A stretch of 64,000 nt of DNA from Candidatus Dojkabacteria bacterium. Lineage in GTDB: Bacteria > Patescibacteriota > Dojkabacteria > J137. Of the stretch, positions 2,103 through 58,630 are shown piece by piece. The notes under the pieces were generated by a model, which saw only the letters and a program-made list of their open reading frames with translations, had not been told where the DNA came from and did not search any database. A program made the position numbers and the translations under genes. The stretch covers positions 423,772 to 487,771 of the forward strand of contig JBDTVZ010000001.1 in assembly GCA_040006935.1 (NCBI GenBank), written 5' to 3'. Within the stretch, counting starts at the first letter, position 1, and each line of letters begins with the position of its first letter.

Positions 2103-2531
2103 ATGACAAAAAAAGTTTCACTAGATGAGGTCAAGAACCTTGCTTATGAATTTGCAATAAAGTATTTAGACTGGGATGAACCAATTCCAGAATTTGAAAC
2201 CAGATTTCCCGGAATCTTGGAAAGTTGTTTAGAGCAGCCATTTCAAAACGTATATGGGGAAGTGCTTTATAGGGGTGTTACTAAAAAAGCTTCTATGTTG
2301 TTCTACTTAATGATTAAAAATCACCCATTTAAAAATGGAAATAAACGTCTTGCGGTCTTGACAACTTTGCTTTTTCTCCATAAAAATAGCAGATGGCTAT
2401 ACGTTTCTAACCAGAGACTTTACGAACTTGCAGTTGAAGTTTCAAAAAGTGAAATGAAAGATAAAGAAAATGTAATAAATGCATTGAACGTCTTACTGGC
2501 TGAAAATATCAAAAATAAATTACCGGAATAA
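2103..2531 (+). CDS. doc: Doc (death-on-curing) / Fic-family toxin
   Basis: 142 aa; motif HPFKNGNKRLAV matches the Doc-type Fic motif HxFx(D/N)(A/G)NKR. Confidence 0.7.
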   Translation: MTKKVSLDEVKNLAYEFAIKYLDWDEPIPEFETRFPGILESCLEQPFQNVYGEVLYRGVTKKASMLFYLMIKNHPFKNGNKRLAVLTTLLFLHKNSRWLYVSNQRLYELAVEVSKSEMKDKENVINALNVLLAENIKNKLPE

Positions 2532-4708: not shown

Positions 4709-4720
4709 ATTCCTTTTTGT

Positions 4721-4879
4721 GTCATCTCGAGCGAAGTCGAGAGATCTTAAACCACCGTGGTAAAGATTTCTCGACTCGGCTAAAGCCTCCCTCGAAATGA
4801 CACAATTCCCTCTCCTTTTAAGGAGAGGGTTAGGGTGAGGTCATACCGCCGCAAAACCAGGCATTAGTTAGGGAGGTCC
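4721..4879. repeat. GC-rich composite repeat (short TIR element gtcatctcgag...ctcgaaatgac + hairpin ccctctcctttTaaggagaggg + accgcc..ggaggtcc module)
   Basis: GC-rich island in AT-rich intergenic region; the hairpin and the ttagggtgaggtcataccgcc block are repeated almost exactly at 40083..40158. Confidence 0.6.
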
Positions 4880-4895
4880 ATGATATAATCCCTTC

Positions 4896-5339
4896 ATGCA
4901 CAAACACATAATCGTCATTCTCGACAACATTAGATCCACCTTCAATGTTGGATCAATTTTACGAACCTCAGACGGAGCAGGAGTAACAAAACTATACCTT
5001 TGCGGAATAACACCTACCCCAGACCATCCTAAGATCAAAAAAACAGCATTAGGCGCAGAAGATTATGTTAAATGGGAACATCATAAAAATATTTTAGAAG
5101 TAATAAATAAATTAAGAAAAGAAGGGTATACAATAGTTTGTGTAGAACAGAGCGAGAAAGCAGTAGATTACAAAGAGTATGAGTATCCTAAAAAAGTTGC
5201 CTTTGTTTTTGGTAACGAGATTTCTGGAGTTTCAGAATATATAATGGAAGATTCGGATGCTATTATCGACATAGAAATGCATGGAAAGAAGAATTCATTA
5301 AATGTAGCGACGACAGTAGGAATAATCTTATATAAATAA
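4896..5339 (+). CDS. SpoU/TrmH-family RNA 2'-O-methyltransferase (TrmL-like)
   Basis: 147 aa, SPOUT fold-like sequence (FNVGSILRTSDGAGV...LNVATTVGIILY). Confidence 0.65.
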   Translation: MHKHIIVILDNIRSTFNVGSILRTSDGAGVTKLYLCGITPTPDHPKIKKTALGAEDYVKWEHHKNILEVINKLRKEGYTIVCVEQSEKAVDYKEYEYPKKVAFVFGNEISGVSEYIMEDSDAIIDIEMHGKKNSLNVATTVGIILYK

Positions 5340-5452
5340 AACTCTAAGCACTAAATCCTAAACAAGGCTCAAAATTCAAATGTTTAAATATTTGTAATTT
5401 GAGAATTAGAATTTGTTTAGAGTTTAGTACTTAGAGTTTAGAAATTTAAAAT

Positions 5453-6007: not shown

Positions 6008-6123
6008 AGGAATCGAATTAATAAATTAACCGCCAATCTCTTTATTCAGTTCATTTTTTCATTCCTTCATTTCTTCATTTATGTTAGAATACGTCAGTAT
6101 TTTAAGATTTTAAGTTTAATAAA

Positions 6124-8052: not shown

Positions 8053-8062
8053 ATTCCCATGT

Positions 8063-8372
8063 TGGACCGCCCAAGATCTTAGTCTTGCTTTCGGGGCGGT
8101 AGAAATCCTCCGTCCAGCTAAAGCTGGCCACCTCCTTTAAAAAGGAGGACTTGAATTCTCCCTTTGTGAATGGAGTGGCACGACCTGCCTACGTGGTGCA
8201 GTCAGGCAGGAGTGCCGAGGGATTTTACCGTTGGACACTGCAATTTAACACCCCTTCGTCTCGCCCATGCTCGACTCTTCCCCTCTTATAATAAGAGGGG
8301 AAGAGCGAATCCGTTAAGGATGAAGGGGTGTTAATACCGCACAGAAACCACTTCTTAGTTCTTGTGCGGTCC
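8063..8372. repeat. GC-rich composite repeat cluster (accgcc..ggcggt hairpin; cctccgtccagctaaagctggccacctcctttaaaaaggagga module; cctgcct..aggcagg hairpin; cttcccctctt..aagaggggaag hairpin; accgcacag..cttgtgcggtcc hairpin)
   Basis: The 8088..8160 segment recurs near-identically at 49165..49235, and the hairpin families recur at 41413..41450, 49137..49178 and 4852..4879. Confidence 0.6.
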
Positions 8373-8386
8373 TTATTTAGCTTTGC

Positions 8387-14151: not shown

Positions 14152-14574
14152 TTAGAACCAGGAAGTAACAGGAGGACATTGCGAAGTACCCGAACCTTTT
14201 ACGCTACCTGACTCTAATAAAACGCAAAGTACAAAATCAGAATTTGAATTTACATTATAAAAGTACCTTGTTCCATTATTCGTTGAAGAACTAGCTGGAG
14301 AAAGAAATCCTTTTAAAGCGTAATTTTTAAATCCAACAATACTAACTTGACCTTGTCCAAAAACGACATTTGCTTTAGTAGGAAAACTTAAATTAGCTTT
14401 TCTATAATCATTTAAAATATTTGTAATTGCAGAAATTGAATTATTTCGCTCAACGTCACGTGAGTTTTTTTGAACTATTCCAATTCCAACAATTCCCAAA
14501 ATGATAAAGATGGCGGTAACCGCCATCCCTATCATTAGTTCTATTAATGTAAAGCCTTTTTTGTTCCTTCTCAT
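14152..14574 (-). CDS. type IV pilin
   Basis: 140 aa; KKGFTLIELMIGMAVTAIFI class III prepilin signal. Confidence 0.65.
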   Translation of the reverse strand: MRRNKKGFTLIELMIGMAVTAIFIILGIVGIGIVQKNSRDVERNNSISAITNILNDYRKANLSFPTKANVVFGQGQVSIVGFKNYALKGFLSPASSSTNNGTRYFYNVNSNSDFVLCVLLESGSVKGSGTSQCPPVTSWF

Positions 14575-39964: not shown

Positions 39965-40158
39965 TCCTGAGCGACACTGAGCTTGTCGAAGTGAAGTCGA
40001 AGGATCTGGCTCTAATAAACTAGAATTAAAAAGGATCTGTAATTTGTATTACGGATCCTTTATTGTTATCTTTAATAAGAAATTCCCTCTCCTTTTAAGG
40101 AGAGGGTTAGGGTGAGGTCATACCGCCCAAAAAACAAGATATAGATTTTGGGCGGTCC
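39965..40158. repeat. GC-rich composite repeat (gagcgacactgagcttgtcgaagtgaagtcgaagg block; ccctctcctttTaaggagaggg hairpin; ttagggtgaggtcataccgcc; ccgcccaaaa..ttttgggcgg hairpin)
   Basis: 40083..40135 is near-identical to 4808..4855. Confidence 0.6.
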
Positions 40159-41239: not shown

Positions 41240-41246
41240 TCGTGAT

Positions 41247-41585
41247 GTCATTGCGATTCGTAGGGGAAAGATTTATCTTTCCCCTTATTCTTTTTGAATA
41301 AATAAAGCCTGAGTTTGGGTGTAAATTCTACATTTTGAAAAGGCCGTGTTACGGCCTTTTGCTTTTATTCCTCCTCCTCTTTTTAAGAGGAGGTCGGGAG
41401 GAGTTAATACCGCACCAAAAACCACAGCCAAGATCTTGTGCGGTCCTTTTTGGTATTCATAACTCCCCTAACCCCTCCCGTGTCTGCCGACAGGCAATCC
41501 CATCCTATGTTTGTGTGATTGCCACGTCGTCGCTTAAGCTCCTCCCCATGCCTGCGTGCGCAGTCAGGCAGGTCGCAATGACATC
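41247..41585. mobile_element. MITE-like GC-rich element (~340 bp) bounded by terminal inverted repeats GTCATTGCGA / TCGCAATGAC
   Basis: gtcattgcga at 41247 and tcgcaatgacatc at 41573; interior made of the same modules found at 54372..54616, 56109..56377, 8063..8372 and 48999..49450; no transposase ORF. Confidence 0.55.
41263..41296 (+). terminator. rho-independent terminator of prfA (inside repeat)
   Basis: ggggaaagatttatctttcccc hairpin followed by ttattcttttt. Confidence 0.6.
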
Positions 41586-48889: not shown

Positions 48890-48998
48890 GGAAAGTTTTT
48901 AGTTTAAGTTATTAGTTTAAAAATTATACCTTAAATTTTAGTTTTTTAAGAAAAAGAATAATTTATTTGCCTTAATTAGGCTTAAAGTTAGCCTTAGG

Positions 48999-49450
48999 AA
49001 AAGGCCGTGTTACGTCCTAATTCTTATGTCATTTCTAGCAAGTATTCCCCTCTTTTTAACCTGCCCGCCAAATAAAAACTTTCAGATAGTTTACTTAGGC
49101 AGGCGGGGATGGGTTAGAGGAGTTATGAATATCAAAAAGGACCGCACAAAATCTTTGATTTAGTTTTGGTGCGGTAGAAATCCTCCGTCCAGCTAAAACT
49201 GGCCACCTCCTTTAAAAAGGAGGAATTCTCCCTTTACCTGACAATAGACAGGTTAAAAGGAGAGGTATTCATTCGTAGGGGACGCATTTATGCGTCCCTC
49301 GTTAAGTGCCACGCCAAAGAGTAATCCAACTTCATGCGGTATTAAACAGTCACGCTCAAAAGATGAGGTGGTACTGTCATGAATAGCATAATATCTTTGT
49401 ATTACGTAGATGAGATTGCTTCTCCGCCAAGGCGGATCGCAATGACATTT
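48999..49450. repeat. GC-rich composite repeat cluster (ggccgtgttacgtcc module; cctgcccgcc..ggcaggcggg hairpin; accgcac..gtgcggt hairpin; cctccgtccagctaaaactggccacctcctttaaaaaggagga module; cattcgtagggga + hairpin; tgagattgc..cgcaatgacat end)
   Basis: Modules match those at 8063..8372, 41247..41585 and 54372..54616; the spurious GC-rich ORF 49253..49453 lies inside. Confidence 0.55.
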
Positions 49451-51914: not shown

Positions 51915-52138
51915 AATTTATGGTTAATAAATAATCTAGTAATGATAATATAATAAGCCAAGTAACTCAATTGGAAAATTCTAAACTCTAAGCACTAAGT
52001 TCTAAACAATTTCCAAACTCAAAATTCAAATATTTTAAATTTTGTTATTTGGAAATTAGAATTTGTTTAGAATTTAGAAATTAGGATTTAGGATTTTGTT
52101 AACTTGTTCAAAGTGACAGAAAATCGTAGAATATATTT

Positions 52139-52357: not shown

Positions 52358-52413
52358 AATTAACCTGGTTTCAAAACGGGATTGCTTCACTTCGCTCGCA
52401 ATGACACCGCAGC

Positions 52414-53104: not shown

Positions 53105-53138
53105 GATTTTTAAGTAAAAAATAGTGTGATATTTGTGC

Positions 53139-54185
53139 CTATTTTGTCTTTTCTGTTGACTTTTTTGCTGTTTCTTTTTTTACAGCTTTCTTCGCTGGCT
53201 TAACCTCTTTTTTCTTTTCTTCTTTAACTTCAATCTTTTTAGCAACAGGTGCTTTTACTTTCTTAGGTGTTTTTTTCTCTTCTTCTTGTTCTTTAACTCT
53301 TTCTAAAATACCTTTGTTTGTTTTTGTAGAGGGTTTAGCTGTTGTGTGTTTAGATTGTGTCGAAACATGTTGCTCTACCATTACTGTTGGCTCTTCTTCT
53401 GAACCAGAGATAATCACTTTTTGCTCTTCTTCAACTTCGTTTGCTTTAGTAATTTTAACTTCAACTTTAGAGTAATCTTTAAGTTCATGCTTTACTCCAT
53501 TTCCTTTATTTCCAACTAAAATAGCATCCGCTAAAGTTTTTAAAATCAATGAGATTGATCTCATTGCATCGTCGTTTGCTGGAATTACATAATCAATTAA
53601 ATCTGGATCACAATTTGTATCTACAATCCCGATTACTGGAACTCCGATTTTTTTAGCTTCTTTTACAGCTGATTTTTCAAAGTTAGTATCTAAAATTACC
53701 ATTGCTACAGGTTTTGCTTCTAAAGTTTTCATACCAGCATAAAGTCTGTTTAACTTTTGCCATTCCTTCTTCATTAAAGCTACTTCGTATTTAGTTCTGT
53801 CTTTAACTCCTTCTTCAAATGATTTTTCTAATGACCTTAATTTATTTAAGCTCAATTTAATTTTTGAGAAGTTAGTAAAAAGTCCTCCTGCCCATCTTTT
53901 ATTGATGAAGTATGAACCTGATCTTACTGCTTCGTCTCTAACTAAATCTGATGCTTGTTTTTTTGTTCCAACGAATAATACTCCACCTTTAGCAGCGGAT
54001 TCTGTTAGAAACTTTGTAGCATCTTCCAAACCTTTAATGGTTTTGTCTGCATCGATGATATGAATGTGATTCTTTTCTCCGAAGATGTATTTGCCCATTT
54101 TTGGGTTCCATCTCTTTGTTTGGTGTCCAAATTGTACACCTGCTTGTAGCAAATCCTTTGCTGAAGGTATGTTAACGTCTGCCAT
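53139..54185 (-). CDS. rpsB: 30S ribosomal protein S2 with long Lys-rich C-terminal extension
   Basis: LLQAGVQFGHQTKRWNPKM N-terminus; ~100-aa K/E-rich tail. Confidence 0.9.
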   Translation of the reverse strand: MADVNIPSAKDLLQAGVQFGHQTKRWNPKMGKYIFGEKNHIHIIDADKTIKGLEDATKFLTESAAKGGVLFVGTKKQASDLVRDEAVRSGSYFINKRWAGGLFTNFSKIKLSLNKLRSLEKSFEEGVKDRTKYEVALMKKEWQKLNRLYAGMKTLEAKPVAMVILDTNFEKSAVKEAKKIGVPVIGIVDTNCDPDLIDYVIPANDDAMRSISLILKTLADAILVGNKGNGVKHELKDYSKVEVKITKANEVEEEQKVIISGSEEEPTVMVEQHVSTQSKHTTAKPSTKTNKGILERVKEQEEEKKTPKKVKAPVAKKIEVKEEKKKEVKPAKKAVKKETAKKSTEKTK

Positions 54186-54293
54186 ATTCCTTTATAAATA
54201 ATAAATAATTTATTTCTGACCTAAGCCAGAAAATCTCTTCCGCAAGTGAGGTTTTTTAAACCAAGGAAAATACCTGCGTGTTGGTATGATTGG

Positions 54294-54323
54294 ATTATAT
54301 CAGATGAGTCAATGGTCGAGCAA
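54294..54323 (-). promoter_or_regulatory. candidate rpsB promoter (TTGCTC-18-TATAAT on minus strand) with ~105-nt leader
   Basis: Reverse complement of 54294..54323 reads ttgctcgaccattgactcatctgaTATAAT. Confidence 0.35.
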
Positions 54324-54371
54324 TAGAATTAAAATAATGAAGAAATGAAGTGAATCTCAGTATATTAAATC

Positions 54372-54616
54372 TGGGATTCGTAGGGAACAGGCATGCCTGT
54401 TCCTTTTATTCAAATAATCAAGGCGTGAGTTTGGCGTAATTTCAGCAACTAAACCAGGCCGTATTACGTCCTATTCCGTTAGGTGTCATTGCGAGGACGA
54501 TCCGCCTTTGGCGGAGAGGACGTGGCAATCTCACACGAATGAATATGATGTAAATAAATTCTTTTGAATGAGATTGCCACGTCGTCCTGATTCTCAGGAC
54601 TCCTCGCAATGACATC
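54372..54616. repeat. GC-rich composite MITE-like element, left inverted copy (gggattcgtaggg + hairpin; gagtttggcgtaatttcagcaactaaaccaggccgtattacgtcc; TIR sub-element gtcattgcgagga...tcctcgcaatgacatc)
   Basis: Reverse-complement match to 56109..56377; the internal ~130-bp sub-element (54487..54616) has 13-bp terminal and 15-bp sub-terminal inverted repeats. Confidence 0.65.
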
Positions 54617-54685
54617 GCAGTTGCGGACCGTGAGATTCACAAAACATTATGATATTATGAAAAGTTTATCCAAATTATTCTATTT

Positions 54686-55045
54686 ATGGAGGAGAACCTC
54701 AGACAAAATTCACTAGATTTAGCAAAGCTTCACAGCATTATTGACCACCAAATATCTGCACTGAGAGTAATTACACCCAATTATTCTATTGGCTATCCAG
54801 TAAATTTTGCAAAATATAGAGAGGTTTGGAATTACGACATTGGCAGAAGTATGTTTTTAGAAGATATAAGAAGAACGATAGAGATTCTTAGAGAAAATTA
54901 CACTGATATTTCGAGCGAAAAAGTTGATGAATTACTAAACCAAGCCTGCATTTTAGTTCAAAAGATATTTGACCAAGAATGCAAATCAGTTCTAGAAGAG
55001 TTAGTTACTACAATAACAAAATTGAAAAACGAAGGTGAAGGTTGA
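54686..55045 (+). CDS. hypothetical protein (cassette gene)
   Basis: 119 aa ORF with ATG start, followed by a strong terminator. Confidence 0.5.
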   Translation: MEENLRQNSLDLAKLHSIIDHQISALRVITPNYSIGYPVNFAKYREVWNYDIGRSMFLEDIRRTIEILRENYTDISSEKVDELLNQACILVQKIFDQECKSVLEELVTTITKLKNEGEG

Positions 55046-55061
55046 GATTTCTAAGGTACTT

Positions 55062-55089
55062 CCCCTCGCCTTTGAGGACGAGGGGTTTT
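55062..55089 (+). terminator. rho-independent terminator
   Basis: cccctcgcctttgaggacgagggg hairpin + tttt. Confidence 0.8.
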
Positions 55090-55352
55090 GACACTATTTC
55101 TTTATGGTAGGAGCGCTTGAAGTCTTCAATACACTACCACCCGGCATCACTATAGGCTGAGTCGCCATATAGTTTTCTCCTTAAATAAAATCGGTCAAAT
55201 GGTGATTTATTCACCAATATAATTATACCATAAAATCTGGCGATTATCTATATCTGATAGTAGAAATGCGAATATTTAATCGAAGAAATTAGGCGTAAAA
55301 AAAGAACACTTTCGTGCTCTTTGGGTTAAGATTTGATTCTATAAATGCTAAA

Positions 55353-55380
55353 CGCCAAGGGGTTGCCTTGGCGTTTTTTC
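55353..55380. terminator. terminator hairpin, possibly bidirectional (ends the minus-strand small-gene transcript)
   Basis: cgccaagg-ggtt-gccttggcg followed by ttttttc on plus; on minus the hairpin sits just 3' of the small ORF at 55400. Confidence 0.6.
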
Positions 55381-55399
55381 GGCTTTCGCCGAGAGACAG

Positions 55400-55546
55400 T
55401 TACTTGGTATGCTTTTTTGGAAGAGCCACGCTGGGTTGGACCGCAACCTTTGTGATCTTTTCCACAACCTGCCCTACAAGATAATCATGAACGATTTTCT
55501 TCTCCTTCGGTGACAATGCAATCATTGTAGAACGGTGACCACCCAT
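55400..55546 (-). CDS. small basic protein, paralog 1 (48 aa: MGGHRSTMIALSPKEKKIVHDYLVGQVVEKITKVAVQPSVALPKKHTK)
   Basis: ATG preceded by AAAGGAGA SD at correct spacing; leader shares cgacagttaa with paralog 2; shared N-terminal MxG[HR][RH]xT and C-terminal S[VI]A[LM]PKK; not in ORF track (<60 aa). Confidence 0.45.
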   Translation of the reverse strand: MGGHRSTMIALSPKEKKIVHDYLVGQVVEKITKVAVQPSVALPKKHTK

Positions 55547-55697
55547 GGAAATCTCCTTTAATTAACTGTCGTTAAAATTTTCGTGCCCTCAACAGTGTGA
55601 TTTTGATTGTGGGAACGAACTTATTAAGTACAAATTTTTCATCTTATACTCACTAAGTCCGTCCTCACGACGGGTTACGCCGTGAGGTTTGTGACAG

Positions 55698-55832
55698 TTA
55701 CTTACGCTTCTTTGGCATAGCTATACTAGGACGAATCCTAGCAATTGTGATGGAAACTACCTTAGGCTTACGAACATAGGGGTGTAAAAACCCTCTAGTC
55801 CAAGCATCTGAAGTTCCATGTCTCCCAGCCAT
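55698..55832 (-). CDS. small basic protein, paralog 2 (44 aa: MAGRHGTSDAWTRGFLHPYVRKPKVVSITIARIRPSIAMPKKRK)
   Basis: ATG preceded by GAAGGAGTG SD; driven by the consensus promoter at 55916..55944; a hairpin cctcacggcgtaacccgtcgtgagg follows the stop. Confidence 0.45.
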   Translation of the reverse strand: MAGRHGTSDAWTRGFLHPYVRKPKVVSITIARIRPSIAMPKKRK

Positions 55833-55915
55833 AATTCACTCCTTCTTAACTGTCGATTTTAAGCTTCTGTAAATTGTTAGATCGTCCTAAGACTCACATA
55901 ACAATTTACATATAT

Positions 55916-55944
55916 AATATATACCTAAAATGGGAATTTGTCAA
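55916..55944 (-). promoter_or_regulatory. sigma70 consensus promoter on minus strand (TTGACA-17-TATATT)
   Basis: Reverse complement of 55916..55944 is ttgacaaattcccattttaggtaTATATT; lies ~85 nt upstream of small gene 2. Confidence 0.5.
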
Positions 55945-56108
55945 GTCTTACAAACCTTCAATACAGTTACAGGTGTGTATATTTTACAATGTCGCCGAAA
56001 AATATCGTCAGAATACCTAAAGTTAATAGGCTGTAGCACGGCCTGGTTTATCCCCTGTTGGAGCAGGTTTGCAACCTGCTCCTTGTCTTTCGTCCCAACC
56101 AATGCGAT

Positions 56109-56377
56109 GTCATTGCGAGGAAGTCTGTCCTGAGCTTGTTGAAGGATGGCAATCTCATCACCCCGTTTCCCAACGGGATTGCTTCGTCCTCACTTCGTTC
56201 GTCCTCGCAATGACAACTAACGGAATAGGCTGTGGCACCAGTAGGCGCTAATCTACATCTCCTCACTGCGTTCGTCGTGTATCTTTGGGCAGCCTGGTTT
56301 AGTTGCTGAAATTACGCCAAACTCAGGCTTTTGTTTAGAATAAAGGAAAAGATATATCTTTTCCCTACGAATCCCAG
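56109..56377. repeat. GC-rich composite MITE-like element, right inverted copy
   Basis: Reverse complement carries gggattcgtaggg + hairpin, gagtttggcgtaatttcagcaactaaaccaggc, ctattccgttag, then gtcattgcgagga...tcctcgcaatgac (56109..56215). Spurious ORFs 56048..56266(-) and 56069..56251(+) lie inside. Confidence 0.65.
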
Positions 56378-56419
56378 GTTAATCTGAGATTCAATTCATT
56401 CCTTCATTTTTTCATTCTT

Positions 56420-58630
56420 TCATTCCTCTGCAGTCGGAGCTTTTTTCTTCTTAATTCTAATAATATCCTTCTCTTTCGGATAATCTGGGTGAGCCCAGAA
56501 GAAACCGAATTTACCTTTTTTAATTAGGTAATCTCTTTTATCTTTAGTTTGTGGGATTTCTCCGTACATTTCGATAAGAAGATCTCTTTTTGGAGTTAGT
56601 GGTTTTGCATCTTTAACCTTTGGATAGTCTGGGTGTGCCCAGAAGCTTCCAAAACGACCTGTTTTTAATACGTATTCTCTTTTATCTTCTGTCATTGGAA
56701 CAGGCTCGTATCGGGTTAAGTCAATTGGTTTTGCTGCTTCGTTTGATTCTCCTTCTAAGCTTTTCATTCCCTTACATTTTGGATAATCAGTACAGCTTAG
56801 GAATCTTCCGTATCTTCCTAATTTTATTATCATTGGTTTTCCGCATTCAGGACATTTTTCATCGCTTTTTCCTAATTCTGTAAACTCTTTTCGAGGGATA
56901 TTCTTATCTTGTCTTGCTACTTCTTTTTCAAATGGGAAGTAGAAATCTCCTAACATTTTTACCCAATCTAGCTTTCCTTCTGCGACTTTGTCTAAGTTAT
57001 CTTCCATTCCAGCTGTAAATCCATAATTTACAATTTGCTCAAAATACTTAACTAACAAGCTATTTACTACTCTACCTGTATCTGTTGGCCTTAAGTACTT
57101 ATTTTCTGCAAGGGCATATTTTCTAACTAATAGTGTAGATATTATGCTCGCATAGGTAGATGGCCTTCCAATCCCTAGCTCCTCAAGCTTTTTGATTAAT
57201 GTTGCTTCGCTATATCTAGCAGGTGGTTGAGTGAAGTGTTGGATTCCATCAAACTCTTTTTGTCCTAACTTATCTCCGATTTGCATTTCTGGCAATATGG
57301 TTTCGTTAAGCTTTTCTTTCATCACTTTTAAGTAACCATCGAAGATTACTGTTTTACCGTTTGCTTTGAATAAGTACTTATCAATTTCTACGTATAATGA
57401 CAAATTAAGGAATTCTGCTGGTTTCATTAAAGATGACAGCGCTTTCGCCCAGATTAAGTTATATACTGCCGCCTGCTCACCTTCTAGCCCCAAATCTGCA
57501 GCCTTTTTAAAGAAGCTAGTTGGCCTAATACATTCGTGAGCCTCTTGAGCAGATTTATTTGATGAAGCATATACATTTAATTTTTCTGGAAGGTAATTCT
57601 TTCCAATATTTTTCTCGATATATTTAATAGCCTCATTAATAGCAGGCTGAGACATATTTACAGAATCTGTTCTCATGTAAGTTATAAATCCAGCTTCGTA
57701 AAGTTTTTGTGCAATAGACATTGCTCTTTTTGCAGAGTACCCCAATACATTCACGGCTGCTTGTTGGAAAGTACTCGTAATAAACGGTGGCCTTGGATTA
57801 CGTTTACTTTGAGATTTTTCTATATTTGAGATTACCCACTTTTCATCTTTTACATCTTCAACAACTTTAGTTGCTTCTTTTTGAGTCTTTAATTCTGGAG
57901 CTTTTTTAGAAATTTTGAAAAGTTCAAATTTTATTAAATTTTCTGGAACTTGAATTTTTTCTTCTTCCTCGTCTTTATTAGTAAGTTTATAGTTGATTTT
58001 ATAGTTTGGCTTTGTATCTTTATGGTCCGCGTAGGCCTCAACACTCCAGTACTCATCCGATTTGAATGCTTCCCTTTCTAACTCTTTTTCTACCACTAAT
58101 CTTAAAGCTGCAGATTGAACTCTACCTGCAGATAGTCCGAATGTAATTTTCTTCCAAAGAAGTGGAGATAGTTTATAACCTACTAATCTATCTAGAAACC
58201 TTCTAGCTTGTTGAGCATTAACTAAATCCATATTAATATCTCGAGGATGTGCAATTGCTTCTTGAATTGCCTCTTTTGTAATTTCGTGGAATACAATTCT
58301 TTCAACTGGTCTTTTTCCTTTATGTTTTCCGTTTTCATCAATTACACCAAGCTCTTTTGCAATGTGCCAACCAATAGCTTCTCCTTCTCTATCCAAGTCG
58401 GAAGCAATTATTAATTTATCTGCACCTTTAAAAGCTTTCTTAATATCTGCTAATGCTTCTTTTTTTGTTATTACATAAGTAGGTTTAAAATCATGCTCTA
58501 CGTCTATACCTGTTTCAGACTTTGGAAGGTCTACCACATGGCCTTTAGATGCAATTACATGATACTCACTACCCAAGTATTTCTTGATTGTCTTCGATTT
58601 TGATGGTGACTCTACTACAACTAAGTTCAT
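56420..58630 (-). CDS. topA: DNA topoisomerase I
   Basis: 736 aa; Toprim, catalytic Tyr domain, degenerate C-terminal repeats (GRFGSFWAHPDYPKVKD, GKFGFFWAHPDYPKEKD). Confidence 0.95.
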   Translation of the reverse strand: MNLVVVESPSKSKTIKKYLGSEYHVIASKGHVVDLPKSETGIDVEHDFKPTYVITKKEALADIKKAFKGADKLIIASDLDREGEAIGWHIAKELGVIDENGKHKGKRPVERIVFHEITKEAIQEAIAHPRDINMDLVNAQQARRFLDRLVGYKLSPLLWKKITFGLSAGRVQSAALRLVVEKELEREAFKSDEYWSVEAYADHKDTKPNYKINYKLTNKDEEEEKIQVPENLIKFELFKISKKAPELKTQKEATKVVEDVKDEKWVISNIEKSQSKRNPRPPFITSTFQQAAVNVLGYSAKRAMSIAQKLYEAGFITYMRTDSVNMSQPAINEAIKYIEKNIGKNYLPEKLNVYASSNKSAQEAHECIRPTSFFKKAADLGLEGEQAAVYNLIWAKALSSLMKPAEFLNLSLYVEIDKYLFKANGKTVIFDGYLKVMKEKLNETILPEMQIGDKLGQKEFDGIQHFTQPPARYSEATLIKKLEELGIGRPSTYASIISTLLVRKYALAENKYLRPTDTGRVVNSLLVKYFEQIVNYGFTAGMEDNLDKVAEGKLDWVKMLGDFYFPFEKEVARQDKNIPRKEFTELGKSDEKCPECGKPMIIKLGRYGRFLSCTDYPKCKGMKSLEGESNEAAKPIDLTRYEPVPMTEDKREYVLKTGRFGSFWAHPDYPKVKDAKPLTPKRDLLIEMYGEIPQTKDKRDYLIKKGKFGFFWAHPDYPKEKDIIRIKKKKAPTAEE

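Follow-up and report, generated by a model that had tools for sequence, protein, structure and literature searches.

Inverted mosaics of dispersed palindromic repeats around a small gene island between topA and rpsB in a Candidatus Dojkabacteria genome

Introduction

The nearest known kind of structure to the one described here is the repetitive extragenic palindrome (REP) and its bacterial interspersed mosaic elements (BIMEs), as found in Enterobacteria, Pseudomonas, and Stenotrophomonas. The structure fills the spacer between topA and rpsB in a metagenome-assembled genome (MAG) of Candidatus Dojkabacteria, and it was analysed within a stretch of 64,000 nt (hereafter the window; GenBank assembly GCA_040006935.1, contig JBDTVZ010000001.1, positions 423,772 to 487,771). 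Two composite arms of ~300 bp, reverse complements of each other, enclose a patch of ~1.5 kb that carries small genes, and the whole structure measures ~2.1 kb. In the reading that we favour, to which we assign a probability of roughly 55%, the arms are BIME-like mosaic clusters of dispersed palindromic repeats that arose by inverted duplication, and the lineage-specific gene island between them lies in an insertion hotspot. On this reading, the arms are not transposon ends; no sign was found that the unit moves or flips, although mobilization or inversion is possible.

Like REPs and BIMEs, the repeats of this locus are small extragenic palindromes that form mosaic clusters between genes and at gene 3' ends, with termination, mRNA stabilization, and insulation as their likely roles. 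A REP is defined as a 20–50-nt palindrome that follows a conserved tetranucleotide, usually GTAG, and one module of our arms, module A, has this formal layout, with GTAG directly before a 20–22-nt palindrome (PMC8266576). However, a REP population has one sequence, whereas the core of A differs in every one of its four copies in 64 kb. Moreover, the A copies are solitary and do not form doublets of REP and inverted REP, the two inverted A copies of the arms being 1.9 kb apart. The transposase gene associated with REPs (tnpA-REP, or RAYT) was found neither among the 28 open reading frames (ORFs) of the 64 kb that were scanned against Pfam nor in the syntenic gene table of L081, one of the closest relatives of the locus. 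The GTAG head is missing from the other modules of the arms (B, C, and D), and the host is a bacterium of the Candidate Phyla Radiation (CPR) with 33% GC.

Gene-bearing units flanked by miniature inverted-repeat transposable elements (MITEs) offer a further comparison, examples being the Correia elements and the integron mobilization units. Our element D is short, non-coding, and multi-copy, with perfect 12–14-nt terminal inverted repeats, all of which is MITE-like, and two D copies bracket a gene cassette here as well as in the relatives L081 and L198 (in L198, one of the two is a remnant). However, none of 147 D copies with readable flanks has a target-site duplication, and no parent insertion sequence with D termini was found. 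Our unit also differs from a composite transposon built from MITEs, in that no duplication flanks it, the D interiors differ, and the arms are between 76% and 100% identical depending on the block. Elhai and colleagues reportedly described, in Genome Research in 2008, small dispersed repeats nested in hairpins in heterocystous cyanobacteria. Our modules resemble these in being very small repeats that insert into each other and into hairpins without target duplication, and in having conserved flanks and variable palindromic cores, but the sequences are other ones, and the cyanobacterial repeats were described within one phylum, whereas D crosses phyla. Finally, invertons are phase-variable invertible promoters such as fimS, hin, and those of Bacteroides. 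The present locus shares with them inverted repeats around a promoter-bearing segment, but its composite arms have ten times the length, there is no invertase gene next to it, its promoter is not directed out of the segment, and a single orientation was observed.

CPR genomes are tiny and usually held to be repeat-poor, and here GC-rich palindromes of kinds that occur in distant phyla crowd the spacers of one lineage of Dojkabacteria. The structure is most likely a by-product of repeat dynamics rather than a new mechanism. The D family and the topA-rpsB hotspot are the more interesting by-product of the analysis, as a conserved housekeeping junction that repeatedly gains unrelated small genes is a good site to study the entry of orphan genes into streamlined genomes.

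Results

Arms. A first-pass annotation, made from the DNA letters alone, had proposed that the two arms are reverse-complement copies of one modular element. This relation was borne out, as a repeat search found five blocks of complementarity in the same order in both arms (Table 1), and the order of modules given in that annotation agreed with a MAFFT alignment of the two arms. When the window was compared with itself by BLAST, a gapped match joined 54325-54459 with 56418-56292 (135 nt, 83% identity, E = 8e-21), which is the longest repeat in the 64 kb. Inside the 40-nt block of 95% complementarity, 34 nt are identical between the arms, and the 33-mer GAGTTTGG...CCAGGC of module B occurs exactly twice in the window, with none expected in shuffled sequences. 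The arms had been located correctly but drawn too short: they extend over 54325-54640 and 56085-56418, and thus ~47 and ~41 nt further outward. Together with the enclosed island, they occupy the entire gap between topA, whose stop codon is at 56420-56422, and the rpsB promoter, the outer end of the right arm stopping one base short of that codon. Their description as GC-rich holds in a relative sense only (40–52% GC, compared with 33% for the window).

Read from outside to inside, each arm is composed of an AT-rich block, hairpin A, hairpins B and C, a linker, the palindromic element D, and an inner flank. Module C is in general a hairpin of the form GGCCGT..ACGNCC with CTATT after it, and the linker CCGTTAG follows. 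The arms are not uniform copies. Module B is 100% identical between them and the outermost portions are the least conserved (76–90%), while the right arm alone contains a 52-nt insertion, the stems of A have changed, and the interiors of the two D elements (D_L and D_R) are unrelated, although their termini and both of their immediate flanks are identical. The stems of the two A hairpins differ at three base pairs, every one of which is compensated. No direct repeat was found at the outer ends of the arms, either by direct reading of the sequence or in the arm alignment.

All four A copies of the window consist of GTAG, then G or GG, and then the palindrome of 20–22 nt, whose core is different in each copy, so that the flanks alone are conserved. 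Across the four copies, the nine stem pairs (9/9) are 100% paired and five of them show compensatory change. None of 500 shuffles was as good, and registers slid along the alignment gave 58–69% pairing. The A hairpin of the right arm matches the A copy at 41255-41291 (89%) more closely than it matches the A hairpin of the left arm.

Every arm module recurs in the window in other combinations and nestings, and a second copy of the whole composite arm was found neither in the 64 kb nor in the other searches. The arms are mosaics of at least five separately dispersed modules and not two copies of a single MITE.

Several observations on the dispersed repeats may be added here. The intergenic clusters at 41246-41585, 48980-49450, and 8060-8375 are made of nested GC-rich palindromic repeats and have modules in common with one another, and the one at 41 kb is a D element opened by ~240 nt of other elements. 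The repeat at 8064-8149 matches 49139-49224 at 88%, and that at 41408-41479 matches 49176-49106 in inverted orientation at 87.5%.

Table 1. Coordinates of the arms, their modules and copies, and the enclosed features (positions in the window;., no strand assigned).
Feature	Position	Strand	Remarks
Left arm, outermost AT-rich block, GAATGAA-type short repeats	54325..54360	+	adjoins rpsB promoter region
Left module A: GGGATTCGTAGGG, palindrome GGAACAGGCATGCCTGTTCC (54384-54403, perfect, 20 nt), T-run	54373..54410	+	
Left module B hairpin	54424..54459	+	34 nt identical to right arm; RNA fold
Left module C: small hairpin GGCCGT..ACGTCC, CTATT, plus linker CCGTTAGG	54456..54483	+	
Left module D_L, 131-nt palindromic element TGTCATTGCGAGGA...TCCTCGCAATGACA	54484..54614	.	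DNA fold -46.4 kcal/mol, z = -12.9
Left inner flank, starts ATCGCA	54615..54640	+	TCGCA identical to right arm; weaker likeness further in
Right arm, inner flank	56085..56107	-	repeat search and arm alignment
Right module D_R, 108-nt palindromic element, long hairpin fold	56108..56215	.	z = -5.5; like D2 of L081
Right linker and proximal part of module C	56216..56239	-	
52-nt insertion splitting module C, right arm only	56240..56291 (approximate)	-	arm-alignment columns 164-215
Right module B	56292..56327	-	34-nt identity to left arm; RNA fold
Right module A: GGGATTCGTAGGG, palindrome GGAAAAGATATATCTTTTCC, T-run	56337..56375	-	~45 nt past topA stop codon, sense direction
Right outermost AT-rich block	56384..56418	-	repeat search and gapped self-BLAST
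Extra module C copy, inner side of D_R	56025..56050	-	direct repeat of split C copy 56216-56239
GC-rich hairpin GGAGCAGGTTTGCAACCTGCTCC	56060..56082	.	
Arm block pair	54332-54360 / 56384-56412		29 nt, 90% complementarity (repeat search)
Arm block pair	54368-54417 / 56331-56380		50 nt, 76% complementarity
Arm block pair	54420-54459 / 56292-56331		40 nt, 95% complementarity
Arm block pair	54470-54500 / 56199-56229		31 nt, 97% complementarity
Arm block pair	54601-54619 / 56103-56121		19 nt, 100% complementarity
Module A copies	41258 and 49273		outside the arms
A-B'-C unit	41250-41365 (B' and C 41310-41356)		just past prfA stop codon, nested within D element
D element	termini at 41246 and 41585		A-B-C unit and other repeats nested inside
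Module C copy	49003		
D halves	49405-49447 and 52370-52412		
AT-rich block motif, similar copy	6050-6079		
Cargo ORF, 119 aa, orphan, no Shine-Dalgarno site	54686..55045	+	sole match is itself
Terminator-like hairpin CCCCTCG...CGAGGGG and TTTT	55062..55089	.	between convergent cargo units, 3' of 119-aa ORF
24-aa mini-ORF MATQPIVMPGGSVLKTSSAPTIKK, AAGGAG Shine-Dalgarno site	55094..55168	-	promoter-like site 55250-55222
Two hairpins downstream of small ORF 1, second with U-run	55345..55392	-	z = -4.9
Small ORF 1, 48 aa, strong Shine-Dalgarno site	55400..55546	-	
Small ORF 2, 44 aa, paralogue of ORF 1	55698..55832	-	strong Shine-Dalgarno site
Promoter-like site TTGACA-17-TATATT, 11/12 positions	55916..55944	-	upstream of small ORFs; consensus match only

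Searches for a known identity of the arms gave little. At the gathering threshold, Rfam matched 4 tRNAs only in the window, and at E <= 5 it returned chance-level matches only in the region of the arms. A tRNA or other structured-RNA gene in the arms was ruled out, as both ARAGORN and Rfam were negative there. A feature of a replication origin or terminus was likewise rejected, since the GC-skew trend is unchanged across the region. On mechanical six-frame translation, the arms and the D family yield ORFs; a protein search with one such ORF of 72 aa, translated from the right arm, produced no candidate with enough shared words.

Assembly support. Two contigs of the Logan collection, each assembled independently from a different sequencing run other than that of the MAG, reproduce both outer junctions of the structure. 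One (L278) covers 55465-56499, or 1035 nt, at 100% identity and takes in the end of topA, the right arm in full, the promoter, and small ORF 2. The other (L085) covers 53112-54394, also at 100% identity, and leads from rpsB into the left arm, where it stops in the middle of the perfect 20-nt palindrome. Of the two, only L278 connects an arm with the cargo, and it shows the same orientation as the MAG. So far as these data reach, the structure is not an assembly artefact.

The topA-rpsB spacer in relatives. The genes flanking the structure in the host are tsf, rpsB, topA, and dprA, and all contigs with the closest RpsB relatives have the order mreB-PBP-dprA-topA-spacer-rpsB-tsf. A metagenome scan with the TopA C-terminus yielded 80 loci, while a contig scan with full-length RpsB was swamped by generic S2 motifs, with matches of no more than 53% identity. 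A further contig, L197, was too short to reveal the spacer. Where rpsB follows topA, the spacer measures 139–350 bp in most loci and 460–3273 bp in others, compared with 2234–2235 bp in the window. Empty sites, in which rpsB lies next to topA, are thus found in many Dojkabacteria-like contigs, and the interval is not a fixed syntenic arrangement of repeats, since other relatives carry unrelated genes in the same spacer. These unrelated accessory genes lead us to regard the topA-rpsB junction as a general insertion hotspot in Dojkabacteria. No long inverted repeats were found in the expanded spacers of other lineages, and the ORFs there are unrelated.

The closest relatives are L081 (RpsB ~81–85% identical) and L198 (TopA 87%). 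In both, the spacer contains a 57–60-aa membrane-like ORF with its own promoter and terminator, which is flanked by D elements in L081 and by one D element and a D remnant in L198. L081 also has a copy of module C beside a D element (14436-14457). Homology between the window and L198, followed from rpsB, stops at 54326, exactly where the left arm starts. In view of the variable spacer and of D elements around a different gene in relatives, the structure in the window is a lineage-specific, cassette-like island bounded by repeats. The composite arms themselves were not seen around different cargo, as might have been expected of a mobile cassette: neither the relatives L081-L084 nor IMG/VR nor ~0.5 Mb of Dojkabacteria-like metagenome loci contained an A-B-C or C-D junction. 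The A-B-C unit as a whole is absent from L081-L084, module A is absent from the ~0.5 Mb, and the more distant relatives have no D element in ~20 kb each.

As to the accessory genes themselves, spacer genes were noted at 3147-3780 of L214, 5462-6051 of L216, 5459-6271 of L221, 8836-9708 of L083, and 5441-8714 of L223. They include a shared family of 125–152-aa proteins with the motif FFT[HK]LTIK[VI]Y.NR[IV]SLE, a 290-aa DUF4037-like protein, and a 772-aa protein.

The D family beyond this genome. The consensus of D is YGTCATTGCGAG...GCAATC..loop..GATTGC...CTCGCAATGACR, with a length of ~80–130 nt (82–131 nt in the elements measured). A search with the pattern GTCATTGCGAG-N60-90-CTCGCAATGAC matched 111 stretches of IMG/VR contigs (L086-L196) with 36–72% GC. 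By our own rough estimate, fewer than one match would be expected by chance. The inner GCAATC...GATTGC stem is common to the IMG/VR copies although it was absent from the search pattern, and 3–4 variable yet paired positions adjoin it. In the flanks of the 147 copies, the sole regularity is a Y at -1 with an R at +1, by which the palindrome is lengthened by one base.

The family is also represented on plasmids or chromids of the cyanobacterium Aulosira and of Methylosinus, Methylocystis, Methylobacterium, Halomonas, and Novosphingobium, one Novosphingobium replicon having it in at least 40 places. As such, D spans the CPR, Alphaproteobacteria, Gammaproteobacteria, and Cyanobacteria. None of the matching plasmid records is annotated at the D match. 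D is essentially absent from curated phage genomes, with one partial match; therefore, the 111 IMG/VR stretches may derive not from free phages but from prophage or gene transfer agent (GTA) regions in cellular genomes. The recurrent neighbours of D in these contigs resemble structural proteins of phages or GTAs, and no transposase-like neighbour recurs within 2 kb of D in the 111 stretches. Twelve loci with canonical D copies had no match in Rfam, translations of D had none in Pfam, and the literature searched with the D sequence, in DNA or RNA letters, gave unrelated primer matches only; a literature search on MITEs in the CPR found nothing relevant.

Integron cassettes are defined by the attC core sites RYYYAAC ... 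GTTRRRY and an intI gene. An identification of D as attC, and of the unit as an integron gene cassette, was rejected, as the D termini GTCATTGCGAG...CTCGCAATGAC do not match the core sites and no integrase is found among the neighbours.

Tandem D copies stand exactly 10 nt apart in three of the IMG/VR stretches (L111, L150, and L168). Within the window, a D-like variant with the termini TGTCATCTCGAG...CTCGAAATGACA lies at 4720-4803, in the first member of a noted pair of regions (4720-4850 and 39966-40127).

Cargo. The two convergent cargo units between the arms are closed by terminator-like hairpins. A hypothetical gene with its own terminator had been annotated on the left-hand side, and we likewise find that the 119-aa ORF ends at a GC-rich hairpin with a T-run. 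In a search of 5.8 billion protein clusters at 90% identity, this ORF matched only itself, a hypothetical protein of the Candidatus Dojkabacteria MAG. Its AlphaFold2 model, computed from a single sequence, is helical and unreliable (predicted local distance difference test, pLDDT, 55). The two tandem paralogous small genes with a near-consensus promoter were likewise recovered, each with hairpins after it, and the duplicated unit takes in CGACAGTTAA on the 5' side and GTAACTGTC on the 3' side. A full HMMER search of 1.84 billion representatives at 50% identity with a profile of these two ORFs found only one repetitive junk sequence besides the 44-aa protein. Pfam, PHROG, and NCBIfam gave no match for the three annotated cargo ORFs, and no record was found when the exact sequences of the window's TopA, the 48-aa ORF, and the 119-aa ORF were looked up. 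The 260-nt segment taken earlier to be free of ORFs holds a 24-aa ORF on the minus strand, which has a strong Shine-Dalgarno site and may encode a peptide. The small basic ORFs (24, 48, and 44 aa) have the motifs QP[SI]V..P and P..KK in common, each with a strong Shine-Dalgarno site, and the two larger small-ORF units are bracketed by an 8-nt inverted pair, GACAGTTA / TAACTGTC.

Discussion

We hypothesize that a single composite, comprising the AT-rich block, modules A to D, and the inner flank, was copied across the topA-rpsB spacer as an inverted duplicate, probably via recombination or template switching at self-complementary elements. Copying as an inverted block is suggested by the identical order of the six modules in both arms. 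Both copies would later have been partly overwritten as elements were inserted within others, hairpin cores were exchanged, and D interiors were replaced; such local turnover is indicated by the patchwork of identity, with stretches of 100% beside unrelated sequence, and by the nested insertion and the exchanged cores. Between the arms lies an island of orphan micro-genes specific to the lineage, in a spacer that is a hotspot for accessory genes throughout Dojkabacteria. Further support for a mosaic origin of the arms comes from the window itself, where nesting is common, the relationships among copies are mosaic and not tree-like, and many other dispersed palindromic repeats occur.

The A hairpin and T-run of the right arm most likely terminate topA, and termination of the upstream gene is the likeliest function of A because A copies lie past the stop codons of topA and prfA in the sense direction. 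Probably, too, the island is insulated from rpsB and topA by the A hairpins that point inward at its two edges and by its internal terminators. The left-arm A, which faces inward from the side of the rpsB promoter, may be a mere by-product of the duplication. The arms are also potential substrates for occasional inversion of the RecA type, as distinct from a programmed switch.

Several points weigh against this interpretation. Both arms have their six modules in one order, and the pair ends exactly at the topA stop codon on one side and at the rpsB promoter on the other, as would a single discrete inserted unit, and in the nearest relatives the content of the spacer was wholly replaced and not added to. 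D flanks a self-contained small gene in relatives too and may have a role in cargo turnover. As 64 kb of a 516-kb contig were inspected, further arm copies or a mobilizing enzyme may lie outside. In addition, a consensus terminator scan did not list the A hairpins to which we attribute a terminator role, possibly since a G-T extension of the stem consumes part of the T-run.

One rival idea is that the structure is a non-autonomous, foldback-like mobile cassette, with the ~300-bp arms as ends moved in trans, perhaps by an enzyme acting on the D termini, so as to bring orphan micro-genes into the hotspot. The arms do start precisely where homology to relatives ends (54326 on one side, the topA stop codon on the other), relatives have empty sites, the cargo is transcriptionally self-contained, and D elements surround a different small gene in L081 and L198; the spread of the D family across phyla likewise argues for movement. 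However, a cassette mobilized by MITE-like ends, as the first-pass annotation had envisaged, does not fit an outer boundary that lacks a direct repeat and is the least conserved part of the arms, and neither a second arm copy nor a cargo homologue was found in the collections searched. The composite junctions were not seen again in the related loci or in IMG/VR, the modules are dispersed singly and nested, and D itself has neither target-site duplications nor a recurrent transposase neighbour. Among the neighbouring genes of the window and 20 further sampled ORFs (28 ORFs scanned against Pfam), no transposase or recombinase was found, nor was one found in the syntenic gene table of L081. We therefore consider a mobile cassette unlikely. 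A bolder version of the same idea would make D and its companion hairpins an undescribed class of palindromic mobile DNA that acts without target duplication and crosses phyla including the CPR, with D pairs mediating the replacement of small cassettes at the Dojkabacteria topA-rpsB junction and the 2.1-kb structure a foldback-type cassette caught in place. This is speculative, and we give it little credence.

Recombination between the arms could alternatively flip the 1.5-kb island, as phase variation or as a neutral polymorphism, and inverted repeats of ~300 bp with identical tracts of 34, 31 (with one mismatch), and 19 nt might seem suited to it. A past flip would also explain why D_R, on the topA side, resembles the element D2 of L081, on the rpsB side, on one strand only (same-strand score 42, compared with 16 for the reverse complement); however, a D2-like element at another L081 locus (D3, score 63 in reverse complement) indicates that the likeness may merely reflect a shared subfamily. 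The identical tracts are short for RecA, no site-specific recombinase gene lies nearby, and the sole contig that joins an arm to the cargo agrees with the MAG, L085 covering the left outer junction only. Because the cargo units are closed by internal terminators, a flip would alter nothing outside, and with symmetric arms it would leave the expression of topA, rpsB, and the cargo unchanged. An invertible segment is thus unlikely, and a programmed inversion switch is not supported. Far less credible is an artefact in which the MAG contig became chimeric through shared repeats or an arm was falsely duplicated. Repeats of a kind common to many organisms could invite such an error, and L085 does break within the left-arm palindrome at 54394; a perfect 20-nt palindrome could by itself end a de Bruijn contig at its middle, though, and L278 and L085 agree with the MAG at 100% identity across the two outer junctions, L278 over 1035 nt from topA through the right arm into the cargo. 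The tracts identical between the arms do not exceed 34 nt, which in our judgement is below usual assembler k-mers. Inverted duplication of a BIME-like cluster, followed by local turnover, accordingly remains the explanation that we prefer.

Additional observations

The rpsB gene (53139-54185, minus strand) encodes a protein of 348 aa, with the Pfam S2 domain at residues 12–224 and a Lys/Glu-rich C-terminal extension as the remainder; RpsB is also long in relatives (295–452 aa). Upstream of rpsB (54200-54320, minus strand), an extended -10 element TGATATAAT and a leader with a CCAACACGCGG...CCGCGGAAG-like hairpin are conserved across relatives (9830-9990 in L081, 9890-9990 in L083, and 6450-6550 in L084). 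Rfam gave no match for this leader, which is probably an S2 autoregulatory leader.

Within topA, an internal direct repeat (56465-56544 and 56609-56688; 80 nt, 76% identity, 144 nt apart) encodes a doubled C-terminal G[KR]FG.FWAHPDYPK module. Two further repeats were noted in the window: a perfect 47-nt repeat at 4804-4850 and 40081-40127, which consists of a CCCTCTCC hairpin and TTAGGGTGAGG, and a repeat of ~105 nt at 5339-5447 and 51975-52091, with 80–84% identity in direct and inverted register, which is probably a palindromic pair in two spacers. Lastly, a 142-aa protein of the Fic/DOC family is encoded at 2103-2531 (plus strand), beside recG.

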